A DNA stretch of 26,657 bases from Candidatus Ethanoperedens thermophilum (GTDB taxonomy: Archaea; Halobacteriota; Methanosarcinia; Methanosarcinales; EX4572-44), in assembly GCA_012910725.1 (NCBI GenBank), contig WNEG01000087.1, positions 13,917 to 40,573 on the forward strand. Reading direction: 5' to 3'. The notes under the pieces are model-generated. The model was not told where the DNA came from and made no database searches. It worked only from the letters and a program-made list of their open reading frames with translations. Positions 1,832-24,588 of this stretch are shown here, in pieces. Numbering within the stretch: the first letter of the stretch is position 1; the number at the start of each line of letters is the position of its first letter. Position numbers and translations under genes: made by a program.

Positions 1832-2018
1832 CTGCATACAACGCAAGCAGAAAATAATTCTTGATTGCTGCACAACTTCGTTGTGCAGAAATAACTCTTG
1901 ATTGCAACCTGACTTGTAAGTGTAGTAGTCTAACAGCGGCTGAACAACTTCGTTGTGCAGAAATAACTTTTGATTGCAATTCTTGATTGTGCAGCAATCG
2001 AGTGCACAAGAAATCAAG
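1832..2018. repeat. Mosaic palindromic repeat cluster between rpoB'' and rpoB'
   Basis: Degenerate module B at 1832-1850, module A (CTGCACAAC-TTC-GTTGTGCAG) at 1868-1888 and 1940-1960, and CTTGATTG..CAATCRAG modules. Confidence 0.9.
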
Positions 2019-2019
2019 T

Positions 2020-3594
2020 TCATATAAGTTCAACTCCATGGCTTGGCTCTTCACCTTGTGCTTCGAGTTCAGGTGCGTAAGATACTGGTTTTTCTTTAGG
2101 TTCGATCAGGAAGGGTGCAAGAGGTTGTACATCGAGGCTGCTGAATAATAAGTCTTTAACTGCATCCCCATTATCCATGCCAGTTGATATCTCAACCATC
2201 TGCGCAAAGTTTTTAACCAAGCCGCAGTTTGGGCCCTCTGGCGTCTCTGAAGGACATATCCGTCCCCATTGTGTGGGATGCAGGTCACGTGCTTCAAAGT
2301 GTGGTTGTGAGCGGGATAATGGCGATACCACTCTTCTAAGGTGTGAAAGTGTAGCTATGAAATCTGTGCGATCGAGCAGTTGTGAAACGCCGGTACGACC
2401 CCCCACCCAGTTTCCTGTTGCAAGAGAATAATTAAGCCTTTCTGTTAGCACGTCTGAACGTACTACTGTTGAGATGTTAAGTTCCCTATTTCTCATACTG
2501 GCTCTCTCAAGCTGGTATTTAATATCTCGTGTTAAACGGTTAAACGAAACACGAAACAGGTCTTCCATCAAATCACCAGCAAGCTTCAGACGTTTATTGG
2601 CATAGTGATCCTTATCCACTTCATTGCGGCGGTAAAGTGCCAGTTCAAAGCATGTTTCTGCCATTCTGCCAAGGAACTGTGCTTTAAGTAGACGTTGTTC
2701 TTCTTCATTTCCAAGATGAGGTAATAAGTATCGATCAATGATGTAGTTTGCTCTTTTTATCTGGTACTCTTTTAGCTGACCTGCTGCAATCCTGTTACCG
2801 ATCTTTTCAAGAGCTTCTTCGCAGGTTTCAACCTCTGCTTCTTCAAGGTTTTCAAGCATGAATTTCATAATTTCAGGATCATTAGATACTGCAGTTGCAA
2901 TATCCTCGTCGTTCTCAACTCCAAGAGCTCGCATCATCGTTGTAAAATTGATTCTACCTGAAATAGAGGGAAAGGATACTTCAAGTAGATCTTTTTTGTT
3001 CCGTTCAACAATTACAAGAGCACGATAGCCTCTTCGCTGAGAAAATACCTTTGCAACTTCGATTCGCTCTCCATATCGTAATTCAAATTCTACTATGATC
3101 CTATTGGACGCAAGGTCTTCAAGGGTGGTTATCACTCGCTCTGTGCCATTTATTATAAAATAACCACCAGGATCATGTGGGTCTTCTCCCAGTTTGATCA
3201 TTTCCTCTTCAGACATGCCATGCAGGTTGCATGCTTTTGAGTGAAGCATTACTGGCAGAAATCCAATATCTGCTTCCTTTGGCCCAGATTCTTCTTCCTT
3301 ATCAACGATGCTCATCTCAAGCTTCATCGGTGCTGCATAGGTGATGTTTCGCAGGCGTGCATCCGTTGGATACAGCTTGTCGACTGCGCCATCAGCTTCT
3401 TTAACCACAGGCTCTCCGACACTAATTCGTCCAAGTTTTATGTGTACATCTTCTACATCGGTCTCTATAATCTGTTGTTCATCGATAATCTTTTGAAGCC
3501 CGCGACCAAGGAATTCGTTAAACGAATTCGCATGGTGCTGCACTATTTTTTCATGGGTGAAATATGCTTTTGATAAAATCCGGCGATCCAGCAT
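2020..3594 (-). CDS. rpoB2: DNA-directed RNA polymerase subunit B'' (Rpo2N)
   Basis: Motifs GGYFIINGTERV, SHLRRVVSPL and HPTQWGRICPSETPEGPNCGLVKN; GAGGT ribosome-binding site upstream. Confidence 0.97.
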   Translation of the reverse strand: MLDRRILSKAYFTHEKIVQHHANSFNEFLGRGLQKIIDEQQIIETDVEDVHIKLGRISVGEPVVKEADGAVDKLYPTDARLRNITYAAPMKLEMSIVDKEEESGPKEADIGFLPVMLHSKACNLHGMSEEEMIKLGEDPHDPGGYFIINGTERVITTLEDLASNRIIVEFELRYGERIEVAKVFSQRRGYRALVIVERNKKDLLEVSFPSISGRINFTTMMRALGVENDEDIATAVSNDPEIMKFMLENLEEAEVETCEEALEKIGNRIAAGQLKEYQIKRANYIIDRYLLPHLGNEEEQRLLKAQFLGRMAETCFELALYRRNEVDKDHYANKRLKLAGDLMEDLFRVSFNRLTRDIKYQLERASMRNRELNISTVVRSDVLTERLNYSLATGNWVGGRTGVSQLLDRTDFIATLSHLRRVVSPLSRSQPHFEARDLHPTQWGRICPSETPEGPNCGLVKNFAQMVEISTGMDNGDAVKDLLFSSLDVQPLAPFLIEPKEKPVSYAPELEAQGEEPSHGVELI

Positions 3595-3626: not shown

Positions 3627-3860
3627 TCAGACAACCAGTCTATATATAGTTGCTTCACCTGCTGTTGCACTTTTTCTGGTTACTTTAATCACATTTCCAG
3701 CACCTGCTTTTATTTCTTTTATAACAGGATCAACAGTTTTAATTTTTGGAAGTTGCTCTTTTTCAATGTTGTATTTTTCCAGAACCAGTGCAAGCTCCTC
3801 ATCACTCAATATTTCATGATTGGGAACCGTATCATGATTTAACAAACTAAACTCTTTCAT
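3627..3860 (-). CDS. rpoH: DNA-directed RNA polymerase subunit H (Rpo5), 77 aa
   Basis: HDTVPNHEIL...LPKIKTVDPV...VIKVTRKSATAGEATIYRLVV. The true start is the ATG at 3860; the longer track ORF runs into the IS element. Confidence 0.95.
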   Translation of the reverse strand: MKEFSLLNHDTVPNHEILSDEELALVLEKYNIEKEQLPKIKTVDPVIKEIKAGAGNVIKVTRKSATAGEATIYRLVV

Positions 3861-5296
3861 CGTACTTGTGCAAGGAGACCCAGTCCGCAAGGGCGGGCAG
3901 GAATTGCGCACACCTCCTGTATAACTCCTTTTGCTCTTTTTAGAAGCGTTAACTTCTTGCTGTTTACTGACGCTCCGATTTGATCTCCAGTGATTGTCCG
4001 AAGACCAAAGTATCCGGAACTCCGTAATCCATGTATAAAACATTCGTTGTTGTTGTATTTCACTTTATCATACCTTCTGAATCCTTTAACTTCTTTCACA
4101 GTATTTCTCTTTAACCTTCCTCCTTTGAGGAGGTTGGCTTTGTATAATGATCGGTTCTGTCGCCTTACTTGTTTGCTGATGATTATGCTATCAGATCGCA
4201 TCTGACCATTACCGCCAGCAATAACAAAAGCATCCGTTGCGTGTGATTTCTCTAATCCAAGTTTGATGCGATTGTATTTTGTGGTGTAGCCATACGTCTG
4301 ATTACAATTCAGCAGATCAACGATTCTGCTTCTCACAGCATTCATAAACGCAGTCGCTTTCAGTGTCTTTTCGGCTTTGCTCTGTATTTCAGGGTGACCG
4401 AACTCTCCAGCTGTCTGATTGCCCTTTGCCTGATTGCACTCGTGACAGGCTATCGTCAGATTAGAGACTCTATCCGAACCGCCTCTTGACCGTGGTACGA
4501 TATGTTCAATCTCCAATGGCACATCCTTTTTGCCGCAGTAAGCACATTTCCTGCCCCACTTTTCCAGCAGGTACTCTCTGACTTCGTATCCTTGCAATTC
4601 TCCTTGTTGGTATTCTATTCCACTGATTTCTGGATTCTGCATCTTCTGGGCATCGAAAGAAGCGACCTCGATAACTATTTTTGTAATCGGAAGAATCTTC
4701 TTCAGTTTCTCAATGAGTTTGATGTGGTTATTCAATTTATGTTGAATGTTCGGTGCAAGCCAGCCTTTTGGGATGCCGCGATTGTTGAAACGTGGTTCTC
4801 TGTGCCACAACCTTGCTCTTCGCGTGCGTCTGTATGTTCTTCGTTTTTCGATGAGTCGTTTGATGTCGGATCGCAGGGTTAATTCGCCAGCGATGAGTTC
4901 TCTGTCGGATGTTACTGTGCTGAACCCGACCGTTGTGTATCCAGCGTCTATTCCGAGTGTTGTGTCCTGCGTATTTTCTTCACAATCCCAAAGCAATCTA
5001 ATCGTGAACGGTGTCTGCTGAACGACCTCTGCTCTACCTGCTTCCAGCAGATGTCTTGCTTTTGCAGGTTTGCATGGCATCAGGGGATTTCCATTCTTGT
5101 TAATCACAAATACCAGCGTATCGGCTTTATGCCCTCCCGCTGGTTGGAGTAAGTGCTCCTCGGAGTTGTTGGAAAGTGTTTTTAAACTCACCACACCGTC
5201 CTTGCCCCTCGGGACTTTTAATGATGGGTCACAGTTGCACCGAACTGGAGCAGTATTCGGTGGTGTGTATGTATTTCTTCTATCCAACTTCTGCAT
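3857..5296 (-). CDS. iscB: IscB RNA-guided endonuclease (OMEGA)
   Basis: PLMP (NPLMPC), RuvC-I GIDAG, Arg-rich bridge helix RRTYRRTRRAR, RuvC-II IEVASFD, HNH CAYC..EHIVP..N..CHECN, RuvC-III HATDA. GGAGG precedes the ATG at 5296. Confidence 0.95.
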   Translation of the reverse strand: MQKLDRRNTYTPPNTAPVRCNCDPSLKVPRGKDGVVSLKTLSNNSEEHLLQPAGGHKADTLVFVINKNGNPLMPCKPAKARHLLEAGRAEVVQQTPFTIRLLWDCEENTQDTTLGIDAGYTTVGFSTVTSDRELIAGELTLRSDIKRLIEKRRTYRRTRRARLWHREPRFNNRGIPKGWLAPNIQHKLNNHIKLIEKLKKILPITKIVIEVASFDAQKMQNPEISGIEYQQGELQGYEVREYLLEKWGRKCAYCGKKDVPLEIEHIVPRSRGGSDRVSNLTIACHECNQAKGNQTAGEFGHPEIQSKAEKTLKATAFMNAVRSRIVDLLNCNQTYGYTTKYNRIKLGLEKSHATDAFVIAGGNGQMRSDSIIISKQVRRQNRSLYKANLLKGGRLKRNTVKEVKGFRRYDKVKYNNNECFIHGLRSSGYFGLRTITGDQIGASVNSKKLTLLKRAKGVIQEVCAIPARPCGLGLLAQVR

Positions 5297-5382
5297 TGTT
5301 TTAGGTGCCTCCTGATCAACTAAGGGATTCTTTAGAAGTCCCTTCCTTTAGTCCTGTTAGGGTCAAGGGAGGGGTAGTTGAC
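3861..5382. mobile_element. Non-autonomous IS200/IS605-family element carrying iscB
   Basis: Left end follows TTCAT and has a subterminal hairpin; right end ..GGGAGGGGTAGTTGAC. Removing it rejoins GGAGG..AAGTAAG to the rpoH ATG. No tnpA inside. Confidence 0.9.
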
Positions 5383-5411
5383 CTTACTTAGGTTTCCTCC
5401 TGTAGCAGAAA
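5115..5411 (-). ncRNA. Putative IscB omegaRNA (5' guide from flank 5383-5411, scaffold starting GTCAACTACCCC at 5382; 3' boundary approximate)
   Basis: Canonical GTCAACTACCCC start, GTCAACTA/TAGTTGAT closing stem and internal hairpins upstream of the PLMP codons. Confidence 0.65.
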
Positions 5412-5485
5412 CGGGCTCGATGGGAATTGAACCCACGACCATCTGGTTAAAAGCCAGGTGCTCTGCCGAACTGAGCTACGAGCCC
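5412..5485 (-). tRNA. tRNA-Lys (anticodon UUU), no intron, CCA not encoded
   Basis: GGGCTCG/CGAGCCC acceptor stem, D arm GCTCAGTTCGGCAGAGC, CTTTTAA anticodon loop, GGTTCAATTCC T arm. Confidence 0.95.
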
Positions 5486-5607
5486 ATATAAAGGGCATGC
5501 GCACAAATATGCAACTTGTTATTATATGTTCACACAAGATCTTGAAGATATCACTGAAGATGCATCCACCTTCCAACATCCTAATCTAATTTAAAACTTT
5601 CTCTACA

Positions 5608-6804
5608 CTATGGCGTTTTTGTCCTGGTGTGTTGTTTCCATCCTTCCTCTTCCACCCTTCGCATGATATGCTTTAGAGGAATGCCGGTTGTTTTTGCTAT
5701 TTTCTTGCAGTCATCAAACTCTGCTGACACATCGAGGATGTGCCTGTTCAGGTCTGTTGCAATCTTCACACCTGATGTATATTGTTTGTTGTTTATGAGT
5801 ATCTGTATTCTTTTTATCGTTCTTCTGGCAGTAAGCCGATGTTTTGCCGGTATGATTCGTACACCAAGACTGCCTGTCTCTTCTATGATGGTTTTTGCAA
5901 GGTGTGAGGAGTTTGATGGTTTTGCAATCACCTGCACGATATGCCCACTTCTGCTTTTTTTAGTGGTAGTAGGTATAATGCACACATCCTTTGCACCTTC
6001 TTCAAGCAATCTATCTATGAGGTTTCCTAATACCTCTCCTGTAACATCGTCGATGTTTGTTTCAATAACTTCAATAGCGTCAGGCATGAGATTGTCTTCT
6101 ACTTCAGCAAGAATTGCCCGAAGAAGGTTGGGATGTTCATATTCATGCTTTCCAGCACCATATCCAATCCTGTGTATTGCTATTGGTGGCAGCGATGCAT
6201 GCTGGTTTGTGAAATGAGAAAGCAAGGCAGCTCCTGTTGGAGTTAGTAATTCTCCTTGAATAGATGTTTGCTGGATTACCAGTTGCGTGTTTCTAAGTAT
6301 CTCAAGCGTGGCTGGTGATGGCAGTGGATAGGTACCGTGGTTTATGCTAACAAAGCCAGTACCTGTTGATATTGGATTGCAGTATATATATTTTGGCTTA
6401 AGAATATCTATTGCTGTACATGCTCCTGCGATATCTGCTATGGCATCGTCACACCCCACCTCATGAAAATGAGTCTCTGGTAGATGTCCATGTACCGTGG
6501 ATTCTGCCTTTGCAAGTATTTCATATACCAGGAGAACGTCAGCTTTTATTCCTGGTGTGATGCTCAACTCCTGGATGTGCTGTTTTACTTCTGCGTATGT
6601 GCGGTGTTTCTGGTGTTGTTGAACCACTGTTGTTCTAACTGCACTAATCCCAGATTTTTTCACTGTGGATACATCTACTTCGACACTTGCGGCAGATTCC
6701 ATCACACCCACCACAACTTCAGGGTCTGCACCAAGGTCTATTAAAGCGCTTACAATCATATCCCCGCTTGCACCAGAATAGGGGTCAAATATCAATACAT
6801 CCAT
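5608..6804 (-). CDS. larC: Nickel pincer cofactor biosynthesis protein LarC
   Basis: FDPYSGASGDM N-terminus, HFHEVG, ELLTPTGAALL, IETNIDD, TTKKSRSG. Confidence 0.9.
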   Translation of the reverse strand: MDVLIFDPYSGASGDMIVSALIDLGADPEVVVGVMESAASVEVDVSTVKKSGISAVRTTVVQQHQKHRTYAEVKQHIQELSITPGIKADVLLVYEILAKAESTVHGHLPETHFHEVGCDDAIADIAGACTAIDILKPKYIYCNPISTGTGFVSINHGTYPLPSPATLEILRNTQLVIQQTSIQGELLTPTGAALLSHFTNQHASLPPIAIHRIGYGAGKHEYEHPNLLRAILAEVEDNLMPDAIEVIETNIDDVTGEVLGNLIDRLLEEGAKDVCIIPTTTKKSRSGHIVQVIAKPSNSSHLAKTIIEETGSLGVRIIPAKHRLTARRTIKRIQILINNKQYTSGVKIATDLNRHILDVSAEFDDCKKIAKTTGIPLKHIMRRVEEEGWKQHTRTKTP

Positions 6805-19402: not shown

Positions 19403-19479
19403 AATCTTGCCTTAAAATTGCCATAAAGACTTCTTGACGTACTCCCCGCAATGAAATTGCGAGGAATCTTTAGGAAGAT

Positions 19480-19668
19480 TCATAGAACCCTCAATGGGCT
19501 CGCCATAGCCCAGTTACTGCTACCCGGAGGCTCACAGTTATTATTCTGTTTAATGTTTGCGACACCGTCCACATCTGCATTCATCGACACGCCCTGATCT
19601 GGACATACGTATAATCCTCGGTGTTTTCTACCGTTTTTGTGGATTACTCCGCATAAACAACATGTTTG
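19480..19668 (-). pseudogene. tnpB: 3' remnant of tnpB
   Basis: QTCCLCG..KNGRKHRGLYVC...MNADVDGVANI (Zn finger + RuvC-III), with no start codon. Confidence 0.8.
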
Positions 19669-19674
19669 TTATAC

Positions 19675-19690
19675 TATATAAGCATTTTTG
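19675..19690 (-). promoter_or_regulatory. BRE/TATA-like motif inside the mini-element
   Basis: CAAAAATG-CTTATATA pointing into the tnpB remnant and right end. Confidence 0.5.
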
Positions 19691-19780
19691 CACGTCTGGA
19701 GAGGCGGGGGCGGGCTATCCCCGCTCTAAAGAGCGAGGCTTGCGCTGCCCCCTGCGCCCCCAATACTGTCAACAAGTTTA

Positions 19781-21454: not shown

Positions 21455-22312
21455 TTACCCTTGCAGTTTTTTCTGATATTTCCTGCGAAGGATGATTGCT
21501 GCTGCATTCATTGTTAGCAGAACCAAAAGAAGCACGATAATTGCTGCCGATGCAATATTTGCAAATTCTGGTTGAGGTTTACTGATCCAGTTAAATATCT
21601 GTATTGGCATGGCTGTAAAAGGATCAAGGGGCGTTTGCGGGGTGAAGGCTACAAACGTGAGAGCGCCTATCATTATCAATGGTGCGGTCTCTCCGATAGC
21701 TCTTGAAAGCGCAAGGATGTTTCCTGTAAGTATCCATGGCATAGCTGAAGGCAGCACCTGGTACCTGATAGTCTGCCACTTGCTCGCCCCAAGTCCGTAG
21801 GATGCTTCTCGAAGTGATTTTGGTACTGCGCCAAGAGCTTCTTTTGTGGAGATGATAATTATTGGGAGTACCAATAACGAGAGTGTAAGTGCACCTGCTA
21901 TCAGACTTTTTCCAAGTGATAGTCCTCGAACAAAAAGAGCAAGACCAAGGATGCCATAAACGACACTCGGAACGCCAGCCAGATTGAAGATATTAATTTC
22001 TATAATCTTTGTGAGACGTGATCTTGGTGCATATTCCTCCAGGTATATTGCTGCACTCACCCCCATAGGCAGTGCAAGAGCAGCGGTTAGCAATATGAGC
22101 CAGATTGAACCCCAGAGTGCTGATTTTATGCCTGCCCTTTCTGGAAAGCGAGATGGATAGCTGCAAATAAAATCCCAGCTTAACCAGGAAAATCCTTTTA
22201 CAAATATATCAAATAACAGTAAAGCAAGCAGCACGATGCCAGTGATTGTAGAGGCAAAGCAGATAACTGCAAAAAGTTGGTCTTTTCTTTGACGTTTCTG
22301 TTGCAGGTTCAT
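21455..22312 (-). CDS. pstA: Phosphate ABC transporter permease PstA
   Basis: [38 protein letters not shown]. Confidence 0.95.
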
Positions 22313-23665
22313 CCTACTTGCGCAAGGAGACCCCGTCCGAAAGGACGGGGAGGAATTGCGCCCTCCATAGAGCTTACATAGTTTCGTGACATAGTTAACA
22401 TCGGTGAGACCTTGAAGACGATACTAATCAACTGTTTGCCATTAACCAGCAAGAAACAGCAGATACGCAATAGCTTCTTTAAAGAATATCTTCGCGTTCT
22501 GAATGCCACACTTAAATCATTGCCTGATGCCAAATCTTCAAACGATTTGCACCACCTAACATACTTCAACATTCGTGAAACCTCCTTTTTGCCTTCTGAT
22601 ATTGTTCAAGAAGCCCGAAAAGATGTGTGGGCTAAACGCAAGACTGTTAATAATAGATTCAAACGGTGTTCTATCCGACTTAACAAGAGATGGTTCAGGT
22701 TTTTTACCACTGATCGAGCAACCCCCAGCTTCAAGATCACCTACGCTCCACACAAAACTTTTACGATACCCATAGCAATTGATGGTGGTTATGATCGATT
22801 CACCTGTTTTCTCGATGATGGCTGGGTTATCAAAACTATATCCCTTCTCGACAGTAAAATTGCTGTCGCCATCGACAAAGATTTCGAAGTTCCTGCTAAC
22901 ATCAGCAGGTATGTCGTAGGAGTTGATGTTGGTTCGACCACTCTCGCAGCGATAACCATTTTCGACACCCTCGAAAACCGTGTTGTCAAACAACTCTACT
23001 TTGGTAGAGATGTTGCCATCAGGCAACGCAGGATTGCGGATCAGCGTGCTTTGCTTCGGAGCAATGTCGACAAAGGTTCTGATCAAGCGAAGAAGAGTCT
23101 TAAACGGCTTGCTAACAAACAATTCAACTTTGTCAAGACCCGTAGTGGTCAAATTGCTAAAGAAATCGTGGAACTCGCGGTTAAACATAGTGCATCCATT
23201 GCCATTGAGAAACTTACTATTAGAAGCAGGAAACACCAATTTAACAAGACGGCTAACCGAAAGATAAACACGATTCCGTATGCACAGCTCAGAGACTTTC
23301 TTATATCGAACTGTGCCGAGTACGGAGTGTATCTTGATCAAGTTGATCCTTACCACACCTCGAAGTGGTGTCCTCACTGCGGTGCAGTGAATAATGGACA
23401 TGCCACATCTAACTACGCTTTGTATAGATGCAAAGAGTGTGGTCTGGTTGTTAATAGCGACAGAAATGCGTCCCTCGTGGTTGCCATCAAATCGGCTCTG
23501 GTGCGGGAAAATTCTCAAGGTCTCACCAACCTTTTTTCCCAGTTTACCAGAGCTAAAGTCCCTGTAAACGGGCTTTTTCGTCCAGATGATAAGTTTTTGA
23601 GTTGTGCTGTGCATGATATCAGTCCTTTGATGGAAAGCCCCTTCCGATAGGGAGGGGTAGTTTAC
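22313..23665 (+). mobile_element. Non-autonomous IS200/IS605 (IS1341-type) element carrying tnpB
   Basis: Follows TTCAT; left-end hairpin CCCCGTCC-GAAA-GGACGGGG; right end ..GGGAGGGGTAGTTTAC. Removing it restores a TAATG pstC/pstA overlap. Confidence 0.92.
22412..23650 (+). CDS. tnpB: TnpB RNA-guided endonuclease
   Basis: RuvC-I GVDVG, RuvC-II IAIEKL, Zn finger CPHC/CKEC, RuvC-III SDRNA; TTG start after GGTGA. Confidence 0.93.
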
Positions 23666-23682
23666 TACTCGTATACCTCCCG
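23480..23682 (+). ncRNA. Putative TnpB omegaRNA (reRNA) with guide from flank 23666 onward; 5' boundary approximate
   Basis: Inferred from established TnpB biology (RNA overlaps the ORF 3' end and right end); right-end hairpin seen. Confidence 0.5.
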
Positions 23683-24588
23683 GTAGCGTGATCTTATCCA
23701 CTGACTAACCAGGTTCATCCCAAATGTCATGAGAAATAGTACCATACCTATTGCAAATATGGATTTGTATGCGATACTGCCGGCAGGAGTATCTCCAAGA
23801 CTTACCTGCACAATGTAAGCAGTCATTGTTTGTATGCTTTCAAAGATGTTGAGGGTTATATTTGGTGTGGCGCCTGCTGCAAGTGTTACTGCCATAGTCT
23901 CCCCAACAGCTCTTGAAATTGCAAGGATAAACGATGCAAGGATTCCAGAAAGAGCTGATGGCAAAACAACTCTTGTTGTTACTTCATATTTGGTAGCACC
24001 AAGAGCATAAGCACCCTCCCTGAGTGTGCGTGGCACGCTTCTAATCGCATCTTCACTCAGACTTGACACCATCGGGAGTATCATTATCCCAACCACGATG
24101 CAGGCACTCGCGGCATTAAAGATATCTGTTCCTGGTACCAGTTTTCTGATAATGGGGGTGACAAACATGACCGCAAAGCATCCATAGACTACGGTTGGTA
24201 TGCCAGCAAGCATCTCTATTACTGGTTTAACGATTCCGCGTGTGCGTTCATTTGCATATTCGCTTAAATATATAGCACTCGTAAGCCCTATGGGAAGAGC
24301 AATAATGCTTGATCCTATGGCTATAAGTAATGTACCATTAATAAGTGGCAGCACCCCAAAATAGGATGGCGAGTAGGTTGGTGCCCACCTTGTCCCGGTT
24401 AGAAATTCGATGATACTTACATCTCTAAAAAAGGAAACTGTTTCAGAAAGTAGTACCAGCACAATACCGATTGTAACGAAGATGGATATTAATGCGCATA
24501 CAAAAAGATAGCGTTCGATAATCTTTTCCTTTACAGTATTATAGCTATGCACTGCCACGTTTGCAATCCCTTCAGTTGTTGTGTCCAT
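23665..24588 (-). CDS. pstC: Phosphate ABC transporter permease PstC
   Basis: [36 protein letters not shown]. Confidence 0.95.

Follow-up and report, generated by a model that had tools for sequence, protein, structure and literature searches.

An IscB transposon inserted at the start codon of the RNA polymerase gene rpoH in a Methanosarcinales archaeon, and its possible translational coupling to the host gene

A complete non-autonomous IscB transposon of the ISC type was found on the minus strand of the window (the whole 26,657-nt stretch of DNA that was analysed), inserted without target duplication directly 5' of the ATGA that is the start codon of rpoH, the gene for archaeal RNA polymerase subunit H/Rpo5. 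We think it reasonably probable that this insertion of an IscB/omega-RNA element at the rpoH start goes together with a termination-reinitiation relay from iscB into rpoH and with a family-wide docking of such elements at start codons.

The IscB element and its insertion site

The stretch comes from a marine methane-cycle archaeon of the Methanosarcinales, Candidatus Ethanoperedens thermophilum. The order on its minus strand is tRNA-Lys, a 29-nt spacer, the IscB element and rpoH, with all of these features encoded on that strand. The tRNA-Lys(UUU) gene (5411..5486, its 3' edge starting at 5411/5412; found by ARAGORN, with an Rfam tRNA score of 69 bits) lies immediately upstream of rpoH across the whole order, as judged by synteny in 30 relatives. 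It is followed by the host leader (5383..5410) with GGAGG at 5400..5396, which together with base 5411 makes up the 29-nt spacer TTTCTGCTACAGGAGGAAACCTAAGTAAG (5411..5383) and is the same in sequence as in the empty sites of three congeners. On the element's other side, rpoH (3627..3860) is intact (77 amino acids, Pfam Rpb5_C 1.5e-28) and gave only one match in a search of the source genome, and the next gene of the RNA polymerase operon is rpoB'' (2020..3594, also minus strand; Pfam Rpb2 domains 1-3). The first-pass annotation had placed the IscB element between the GGAGG of the rpoH leader and the ATG, and this anatomy was confirmed, with the addition that GGAGG lies 13 nt from the ATG at the empty site, which is long for a Shine-Dalgarno sequence, and that the motif is kept in the genus and roughly in the family. 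It had also made the element the first cistron of the RNA polymerase operon; the element does stand before rpoH, but because tRNA-Lys lies only 29 nt upstream across the whole order, the transcript probably starts earlier, before the tRNA gene.

The element occupies 3861..5382 (minus strand, 1522 bp), from a 5' end GTCAAC to a 3' end GTACG, as delimited by comparison with sister copies (10 right and 14 left ends), with empty sites and with metagenome contigs, and the rpoH copy opens with GTCAACTACCCC at 5382. The omega-RNA scaffold (Rfam HEARO RF02033; 5149..5382, minus strand) begins at the first base of the element, 5382, next to the host flank, and was matched by cmscan over the full length of the model (1-211) at 106.3 bits, compared to a gathering score of 83. 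The iscB frame (3857..5296, minus strand; 479 codons and a stop), of which the first ~60 codons overlap the omega-RNA, has intact RRXRR/RuvC and HNH domains (Pfam RRXRR 2.8e-64, HNH 1.5e-13), and its product matches the solved structures (PDB) of TbaIscB (2e-55) and OgeuIscB (1.6e-42) and shows NGNPLMPC (the N-terminal PLMP motif), GIDAG, IEVASFD and SHATDAF. There is no stop codon for iscB inside the element; the frame crosses the left-end hairpin, has the tail ..GLGLLAQVR and takes four host bases for its last sense codon (CG/A, the slash here and below marking the edge of the element) and its stop, TGA at 3859..3857. This stop overlaps the rpoH ATG (3860..3858) as ATGA, just as had been read earlier from the sequence, and the host ATGA (3857..3860, minus strand) is at once the transposon target, the presumptive TAM, the rpoH start (ATG) and the iscB stop (TGA).

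The empty site which the first-pass annotation had reconstructed, ...CCTAAGTAAG joined directly to ATGAAAGA, was found exactly in three congeners and in contigs of three metagenome runs. The three same-genus genomes read ...ACAGGAGGAAACCTAAGTAAG followed directly by ATGAAAGAATTT at the tRNA-Lys/rpoH junction, and the contigs from the three runs (two studies) join 3860 to 5383, skipping exactly 1522 bp, at ~97-98% identity; these runs covered only small shares of the stretch and were used for the empty-allele joint only. As the empty sites in congeners and metagenomes carry the ATGA, it is host DNA and was not duplicated by the insertion, and empty sites show the same insertion directly 5' of ATGA, without target duplication, for four sister copies as well as for the rpoH copy. 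An assembler might have threaded a repeat copy into the tRNA-Lys/rpoH junction, as the source is a metagenome-assembled genome, 61% complete and in 114 contigs, with N-filled gaps within several sister copies, and as copies of the element family are very numerous in related metagenomes. We regard such an artefact as extremely improbable, however, because both junctions map to one phosphodiester bond of the empty site, no gaps occur across 3861..5382, and the rpoH copy is only 75-89% identical to the other copies along its length and so is not a collapsed consensus.

This non-autonomous ISC-type element (IS200/IS605 superfamily) would have been inserted at the rpoH ATGA by a Y1 transposase supplied in trans, and its insertion brings the omega-RNA scaffold to lie immediately after the rpoH leader. 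The source genome has five tnpA (Y1) genes; an autonomous IS605 element on C43 was considered as the source of the cognate transposase and rejected, since its right end is similar but neither its left end nor its target agrees. The element is like the ISC transposons with an N/ATGA target described previously (ISC1-1_MA from Microcystis, ISC2-1_HM and ISC2-1_MS; Kapitonov, Makarova and Koonin 2016, PMC4810608) in having iscB as its sole gene, with no transposase gene, in its 5'-GT...CG-3' termini, in its insertion 5' of ATGA without duplication, in what looks like a subterminal hairpin at its target-side end, and in sharing termini and target with a TnpB element that has its gene on the other strand (here the sibling at 23665..22313). 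It is unlike them in its host, a Methanosarcinales archaeon, as N/ATGA targets were found in that paper only in Cyanobacteria and Proteobacteria while the archaeal examples used GT/GA, and in that the copies here sit on the start codons of core genes; the term “start codon” is absent from the text of PMC4810608, which mentions neither stop-codon borrowing nor the translation of host genes.

The last 16-20 nt of the leader adjoin the omega-RNA scaffold on its 5' side and presumably serve as the IscB guide, and with the catalytic motifs and the scaffold intact the protein is predicted to carry out RNA-guided cleavage of a flank-matching target beside the presumptive ATGA TAM. From the known biology of IscB, host transcription through tRNA-Lys would yield an omega-RNA with the leader as its guide and the empty allele plus ATGA as its target, and this target with its ATGA is present in the congeners and metagenomes. 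IscB/omega-RNA (OMEGA) systems are known to bias how transposons are inherited (Meers et al. 2023 preprint, 10.1101/2023.03.14.532601), and the element is like them in that the transposon end upstream of iscB sets the limit of the omega-RNA, flanking DNA provides the guide and the expected target, here predicted from sequence, is the empty donor joint beside the transposase target motif. IscB elements also tend to match the orientation of the upstream gene (10.1101/2023.03.14.532601), which fits a dependence on host transcription. Docking at start codons, overlap of the stop with the start of a downstream gene and relay frames are, in contrast, not described in the OMEGA work.

Sister copies and host start codons

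Docking at start codons is a property of the family rather than a chance event at rpoH. In the source genome the 14 left-end junctions of the IscB family all close on ATGA (...AAGTAAG/ATGA), 13 of them continuing as ATGAA, and 10 right ends start with GTCAACTACCCC beside unrelated flanks. True host start codons were adjoined by 12 of the 13 sister junctions that could be evaluated, the N-termini being those of RpoH, RtcB, a GlmM-like protein, Rpp29, Cbf5, PstA, GH57, a riboflavin-synthase-like protein, a VapB-like antitoxin, two signal-peptide proteins and an unnamed 316-aa frame. The first-pass annotation had taken the target motif to double as start and stop codon, and the insertions of the family are indeed not spread like random ATGA sites: the source genome has 4659 ATGAA sites, at most 285 of them at gene starts and 718 outside genes, giving a start-codon bias of P ~5e-13 against random sites and of P ~1e-4 to 2e-6 (11/12 or 12/13 junctions) against harmless sites, this null being made up of intergenic and start-codon ATGAA. 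Empty sites further show that three copies split native stop/start overlaps, namely uL29/Rpp29 and upstream-gene/cbf5 (both ATGA) and pstC/pstA (TAATGA). One retained copy, C69, lies off gene starts; at C110:26428 the 3' junction is syntenic with the congeners but the 5' flank is not, and no empty site for the C54 copy was found in the three congeners. The element family looks like a recent burst, with no copy turning up in five relatives from the host's own genus and family. A mini-element at 19411..19772 was considered as a further member and rejected, as its ends are different.

The bias might reflect survivorship alone, with a transposase that takes any ATGA, persistence only of the copies that do not disrupt genes and no adaptation to start codons. 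The genome is 83% coding, so most ATGA sites would be lethal or harmful to hit, C69 has been retained away from a gene start, and an apparent recent burst would have left selection time to act only against strongly harmful insertions. We consider this unlikely, since the observed 11/12 or 12/13 is still improbable under the harmless-sites null, since removal of the ribosome-binding site of the essential rpoH, rnp1, cbf5 and rtcB would not be harmless unless translation is re-supplied, and since edge stops and open host-sense frames kept across distant relatives argue for adaptation. The bias would most likely come from three things together: a strand-specific ATGA target, the loss of gene-disrupting insertions and the need for transcription from host promoters.

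We hold it as a serious though tentative possibility that IscB and TnpB transposons with an ATGA target are specialists in docking at start codons, carry relay frames and colonise core operons. Their strand-specific target would place them in sense orientation before genes, so that a host promoter transcribes the guide-bearing omega-RNA; the relay frames would be iscB itself, mini-frames led by a Shine-Dalgarno sequence and a stop-free frame antisense to tnpB; the core operons reached would be those for RNA polymerase, ribosomal proteins/RNase P and pst; and precise loss would restore the IscB target at an essential start codon, making the insertion self-enforcing. Cas9 and Cas12 descend from IscB and TnpB, whose biology in nature is still under study, including the puzzles of how an IscB guide that lies outside the element gets transcribed and how thousands of copies persist in compact genomes. 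If the proposal is true, an ATGA serving as both start and stop codon would answer both, with sense insertion behind a host promoter and re-supply of the displaced translation signal, and, if confirmed, it would explain how these elements sit inside RNA polymerase and ribosomal operons.

Relatives in at least four other archaeal genomes also adjoin host starts (those of HisRS, ZPR1, a JAB protein and secreted proteins), and in these iscB stops 0-4 nt from the host ATG. Two left-end matches in G040 were considered as start-codon dockers and rejected, as they end on TTGA and not ATGA and lie off start codons. In the original HEARO paper of 2009, Weinberg and colleagues reportedly noted ATGA/GTGA integration sites. 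Literature searches (HEARO with ATGA; IS605, ATGA and start codon; IscB with translational coupling) found no relevant paper; the ISC transposon with an N/ATGA target is known, and we found no paper on start-codon docking, relay frames or a stop-free antisense strand of tnpB.

The stop/start overlap and translation of rpoH

The proposed translational coupling of iscB and rpoH is well supported by comparison. Overlaps of the ATGA type couple genes by termination-reinitiation in archaea, and coupling at native ATGA / TGATG gene pairs was shown experimentally in one archaeon and one bacterium (Huber et al. 2019, PMC6728339). The stop/start geometry here is identical to that of such native pairs, the difference being that a selfish gene here forms the upstream partner and carries this arrangement along to the gene at which it lands. 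Ribosomes that end iscB would restart on the overlapping rpoH AUG by termination-reinitiation, and this restart would replace the Shine-Dalgarno site, now 1.5 kb away from the rpoH ATG, so that rpoH translation would depend on iscB translation. Set against this, it looks awkward for a core polymerase subunit to be tied to a nuclease gene whose own ribosome-binding site lies in the omega-RNA pseudoknot, and rpoH may never have leaned strongly on GGAGG because this lies 13 nt from the ATG.

The left-end region (3861..3925, minus strand; 13 copies aligned by eye) contains AGGAGGTG together with what appears to be an imperfect hairpin (GCGCAA..TTGCAC) and, adjoining the host ATGA, a 7-nt linker, AAGTACG. 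The hairpin (GCGCAA/TTGCGC plus CCCCGCCC/GGACGGGG) has, by eye, paired stem changes among the copies and in L075, with mismatches in the rpoH copy, and the RNA fold of the region in the rpoH copy is unexceptional (z = 0.65). A split ribosome-binding site, in which the hairpin would bring AGGAGGTG near the host ATG, was set aside on account of this z-score, the possible pairing of the motif with the downstream CCUCC and the imperfect hairpin of the rpoH copy, and has a place only within the rival reading that follows.

The same anatomy could exist with no coupling at all, rpoH initiating alone, either independently of a Shine-Dalgarno sequence or by means of sequence at the element end, and the iscB stop being a by-product of a frame that reaches the edge. 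The 13-nt distance of the native GGAGG suggests that initiation may not depend on it, AGGAGGTG lies just 5' of the left-end hairpin in the family, and some relatives have a well-spaced Shine-Dalgarno sequence in the last 15 nt of the element (GGAGGT in L081, GGGGGAG in L076 and GAGGTGAT in L134), by which an element can supply a ribosome-binding site and not a relay. We nevertheless find independent initiation rather doubtful for rpoH, where there is no Shine-Dalgarno-like motif within 15 nt of the ATG and where AGGAGGTG is 57 nt off and is able to pair with the following CCUCC, and this reading leaves unexplained both the stop-free frame antisense to tnpB and a frame-restoring deletion in the C54 copy.

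Host-sense frames with their end on this same TGA are kept by gene-less derivatives and by the TnpB sibling, in line with coupling. The gap-free gene-less copies all keep ATG-started frames (86, 119, 95 and 87 codons) ending on the TGA of the host ATGA, although the sister copies are related and so these counts, as distinct from the insertion sites, are not fully independent. The C54 frame begins at an ATG of the host that has a Shine-Dalgarno sequence of its own, and a compensating 1-nt deletion keeps it in frame. The non-genic C69 copy keeps a 30-codon frame much like that of the genic C71 copy, suggesting that inheritance, and not selection, accounts in part for short terminal frames, and thus retention of a frame is not on its own decisive for coupling. 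A 4-nt overlap of the element frame with the host start was found for iscB, for all gap-free gene-less copies, for the TnpB sibling and for its homologue L133.

Such frames recall mycobacterial interspersed repetitive units (MIRUs), mobile repeats found at start codons in which an internal frame overlaps the host start by 4 nt, an overlap that is thought to keep the host gene translated (PMC12548453). The likeness is one of way of working and not of family membership, as MIRUs are only 40-100 bp long, have no nuclease, guide RNA or known transposase and show no sequence relation to the elements described here. If coupling is confirmed, the relay-frame idea of the MIRU type would be extended to transposons of RNA-guided nucleases, and for annotation it would be a caution that expression of genes directly downstream of iscB may run through iscB.

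The TnpB sibling at pstA

The sibling element (22313..23665, minus strand; 1353 bp) has the same left end and target and lies between pstC and pstA at GAGTA/ATGAAC, a site that is present in its empty form in three congeners. Its tnpB gene (22412..23650, plus strand) is on the strand opposite to the host-sense direction of the element. In the host sense a stop-free frame of 381 codons antisense to tnpB (23701..22556, minus strand) precedes an 87-codon frame (22309..22572, minus strand), which has AAGGAGGT 7 nt before its ATG and ends on the TGA of the pstA ATGA. The relay is not seamless in this element, as the first ATG lies ~50 nt past the pstC stop.

After codon 49 the sibling tnpB has no TTA, CTA or TCA codon, compared to ~14 expected at the host rate of 3.75%. 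Five homologues, spread over four other genomes and as little as 34% identical, share this antisense-stop depletion and the two-frame layout; the homologue L133 is 86% identical to the sibling. If translation through the transposon is under selection, this stop-free antisense strand would be a testable signature of it, as four other tnpB genes of the genome, which served as controls, lack it and carry 12-28 TTA/CTA/TCA codons, spread along their length.

The IscB element at rpoH and its empty site

The genes at this locus are all on the minus strand, in the order LarC-type nickel-insertion gene (6804..5608), tRNA-Lys(UUU) (5486..5411), a 29-nt spacer TTTCTGCTACAGGAGGAAACCTAAGTAAG, omega-RNA, iscB, rpoH, rpoB'' and rpoB'. 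The omega-RNA (5382..5149) matches the Rfam HEARO family over its full length (106 bits), its first bases at 5382 being GTCAACTACCCC, and the iscB open frame (5296..3857) encodes Pfam RRXRR and HNH domains, its product matching solved IscB structures at 1e-42 to 2e-55. rpoH (3860..3627) codes for archaeal RNA polymerase subunit H, an Rpb5_C protein of 77 residues. The iscB stop and the rpoH start overlap as ATGA; the final sense codon of iscB is CG/A and the stop is TGA, so that the frame borrows four host bases.

Sister copies were sought in the genome to which the window belongs (1.25 Mb in 114 contigs, a 61%-complete metagenome-assembled genome) and many were found. Ten right ends, where the omega-RNA begins, all start with GTCAACTACCCC beside unrelated flanks, and 14 left ends all finish in GCGCAAGTAAG followed by ATGA (ATGAA in 13 of the 14), diverging beyond. 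The empty rpoH site, which the first-pass annotation had reconstructed with the element between the Shine-Dalgarno motif and the start codon, was recovered exactly in three congeneric genomes (tRNA-Lys, the same 29-nt spacer, then ATGAAAGAATTT), and element-free alleles were also found on metagenome contigs from three marine-sediment or cold-seep runs of two studies, where 3860 is joined to 5383, skipping 1522 nt, with flank identity of about 97-98%. The element is therefore 5382..3861 (1522 bp) and the ATGA is host DNA, without duplication. The rpoH insertion is recent and polymorphic in nature. None of the five genomes of this genus and family that were searched with a left-end probe contained a copy. 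Related copies are present in more distant Methanosarcinales genomes, the closest IscB, at 78% identity, coming from a metagenome-assembled genome labelled “Methanosarcinales archaeon”. The rpoH leader finishes in AAGTAAG (5383-5389), the same 7 nt in which the consensus left end (3861-3870) finishes, and as the element-free congeners have this leader too, it is ancestral. In two metagenome runs (X2 and X3), contigs that matched only the omega-RNA part (5192-5382) had word depths of 259-569, compared to about 3 for the flanking host genes, suggesting that miniature copies with an omega-RNA are very abundant in those sediments.

Kapitonov, Makarova and Koonin (PMC4810608) described ISC transposons as having IscB as their sole gene, 5'-GT...CG-3' termini and insertion at N/ATGA without duplication, sharing termini and target with TnpB elements whose gene is on the opposite strand, and being mobilised in trans by a Y1 transposase. 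Each of these sequence-level features is present here. The element is an archaeal addition to a known kind, and both its type and its ATGA target are already published. Five Y1 transposase genes are present in the window's genome. The one element of these that was inspected, an autonomous IS605 with tnpA and tnpB (contig C43:24645-26305), closely resembles the ATGA family at its right end, GTGAACTACCCC, but differs from it in left end and target; it may be a relative of the mobilising element. Another miniature IS605-type element (19411-19772), preceding a small gene, has different ends and does not belong to the ATGA family.

Start codons at insertion sites across the family

The proposal that the target motif doubles as a host start codon extends well beyond rpoH. 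Among 14 left-end junctions in this genome 13 could be evaluated, and at 12 of these a host gene truly begins with the ATG of the ATGA, the lone exception being the copy on contig C69, which is followed by only a 5-codon frame. The proteins begun are RpoH, RtcB, the RNase P subunit Rpp29, Cbf5, PstA, a phosphoglucosamine-mutase-type enzyme (profile position 3 at residue 2), a riboflavin-synthase-like protein (profile position 2 at residue 1), a family-57 glycoside hydrolase (GH57), a VapB-like antitoxin, two proteins with signal-peptide-like N-termini and one unnamed 316-residue frame. The genome has 4659 ATGAA sites on both strands, no more than 285 of them at or close to gene starts and 718 outside a gene set that is itself crude. 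The insertions are not distributed like random ATGA sites (P about 5e-13), and the excess persists under a null of survival at harmless sites only (P between 1e-4 and 2e-6). rpoH is not a special case within the family.

Empty sites in congeners confirmed four further insertions to the base: at the ATGA overlap of the uL29 stop and Rpp29 start, at an ATGA overlap between an upstream gene and cbf5, at the TAATGA overlap of pstC and pstA, and at the GH57 start, for the 3' junction. The family therefore also splits native stop/start overlaps within operons, which were presumably coupled. The copy at the GH57 start (C110:26162-26431) is a gene-less TnpB-type copy whose 3' junction is syntenic with congeners and whose 5' flank is not, suggesting rearrangement between element copies. 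IscB relatives in other archaea dock as in this genome: the iscB stop is 0-4 nt from an ATGA in Thermoplasmata, Thermoplasmatales, Nanoarchaeota and two other Methanosarcinales genomes, and the genes begun there encode HisRS, ZPR1 zinc-finger, JAB-domain, and secreted or zinc-ribbon proteins.

Possible translation through the elements

ATGA overlaps couple translation by termination-reinitiation in one archaeon and one bacterium (PMC6728339), and three comparative observations suggest that the elements may exploit this. No copy of iscB has an internal stop, and in relatives the frame always ends right at the element's edge. All gap-free gene-less derivatives retain an ATG-started frame terminating on the TGA (86 codons in C84, 119 in C54, 95 in C110 and 87 in the second element of the window). 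The C84 type is iscB with an in-frame deletion, and C54 is more telling: its frame begins at a host ATG, with a well-spaced GGAGGT, 9 nt ahead of the element, spans the entire 347-bp copy, and is brought back to termination on the TGA by a 1-nt deletion near the end.

The strongest of the three is that second element, a TnpB sibling (23665..22313, minus strand; tnpB at 22412-23650, plus strand) with the same left end and target as the IscB family, inserted between pstC and pstA at GAGTA/ATGAAC. Its host-sense strand has a 381-codon frame exactly antisense to tnpB, then the 87-codon frame, whose ATG is preceded at 7 nt by AAGGAGGT and whose stop falls in the pstA ATGA. Codon-aligned antisense stops are TTA, CTA and TCA codons in tnpB; five occur within the first 49 codons and none in the remaining 364, where the rate in host genes of the window (3.75%) would predict about 14 in tnpB (P about 1e-6). 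The same depletion past about codon 50-60 is found in five homologues from four other Methanosarcinales genomes, the most divergent noted being 34% identical, and full-length homologues also have the two-frame layout. As controls, four other tnpB genes of the same genome have 12-28 such codons each, evenly spread, and each frame on the antisense strand of the autonomous IS605 is broken by 30-41 stops. This points to selection for a translatable host-sense strand, or to an unrecognised antisense gene, no other explanation being apparent. The first base of the sibling, G, recreates a TAG stop for pstC.

The consensus left end before ATGA (e.g. C41:340-373, C92:1596-1629) closes two frames with stops no more than 4 nt from the host ATG, as TAA-G-ATG and ATGA, the third frame being that of the host gene, and so ribosomes of any frame would finish at or run into the host start. 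The last 20-30 codons of the terminal frames are open partly by descent, since the non-genic C69 copy has a short frame (30 codons) much like that of a genic one (29 codons in C71). Some relatives (L081, L076 and L134) have a well-placed Shine-Dalgarno motif within the last 15 nt of the element, which can therefore also act as a direct source of a ribosome-binding site; the rpoH copy lacks such a motif within 15 nt of the ATG. It is not obvious that the host would be comfortable with a core subunit of RNA polymerase coupled to a nuclease gene whose ribosome-binding site is itself hidden in the omega-RNA pseudoknot. At the empty site 13 nt separate the GGAGG, which is conserved in the genus, from the ATG; relatives at the family level have a comparable motif about 9-12 nt ahead of a GTG start, and in other families of the order the spacing is shorter, at 7 nt. 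A hairpin-split ribosome-binding site was also considered and did not hold up.

The iscB ATG lies inside the omega-RNA, about 60 codons ahead of the usual PLMP N-terminus (5116-5296, minus strand), with the pseudoknot GGAGG 11 nt 5' of it and only a CTG directly before the PLMP motif. In tblastn searches Thermoplasmata and Nanoarchaeota relatives align from IscB residue 1-2, so this N-terminal extension is conserved, although an RNA rather than a protein constraint could be the cause.

Transcription, precedent and the adjoining spacer

In each of the 30 relatives examined across the order (L027-L055), tRNA-Lys(UUU) directly precedes rpoH at a distance of 29 to about 100 nt; in several families this tRNA has an intron-like insert. 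Given this adjacency the 29-nt spacer is too small for a promoter, and the transcript most likely starts before the tRNA. The first-pass annotation had made iscB the first cistron of the polymerase operon; it does precede rpoH, but the operon is probably co-transcribed with tRNA-Lys. Such a transcript would include the omega-RNA and its guide, which could owe its 5' end to tRNA 3' processing.

As the ATGA target is strand-specific, start-codon insertions are always co-oriented with the gene, and because the guide is outside the element a host promoter must transcribe it; IscB elements are reported to match, as a tendency, the orientation of the upstream gene (Meers et al., 10.1101/2023.03.14.532601). 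Sense-strand ATGAs in short, transcribed, non-coding leaders would mostly be start codons themselves, and thus survivorship and the need for host transcription can yield the bias. Start-codon sensing by the transposase would not be needed, and the relay frames would make such sites tolerable. Insertion preference and retention look alike in these data.

There is precedent for the mechanistic idea in mycobacterial MIRUs, mobile start-codon repeats whose frame overlaps the host start by 4 nt (reviewed in PMC12548453). We found no paper that connects start codons or translational coupling with IscB or TnpB elements. Added here are the verification of empty sites, environmental alleles among them, and tests of the start-codon pattern against two null models. 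Further additions are the insertions found in polymerase, ribosomal/RNase P and pst operons, examples from across phyla, and the finding that the TnpB siblings share a conserved antisense frame free of stops, for which other tnpB genes of the genome served as controls.

Further down the operon, the spacer of about 145 nt between rpoB'' and rpoB' (1876-2019, minus strand) holds repeated perfect hairpins, CTGCACAAC-GAAG-TTGTGCAG, bounded by two near-copies of GGAGTYGAACTWATATGAAC, so that the rpoB'' stop and rpoB' start each have an ATGA copy of their own. All three congeners have a spacer of this kind, its sequence varying, and it therefore predates the IscB burst. The hairpin unit seen here also flanks the IS605 on contig C43.
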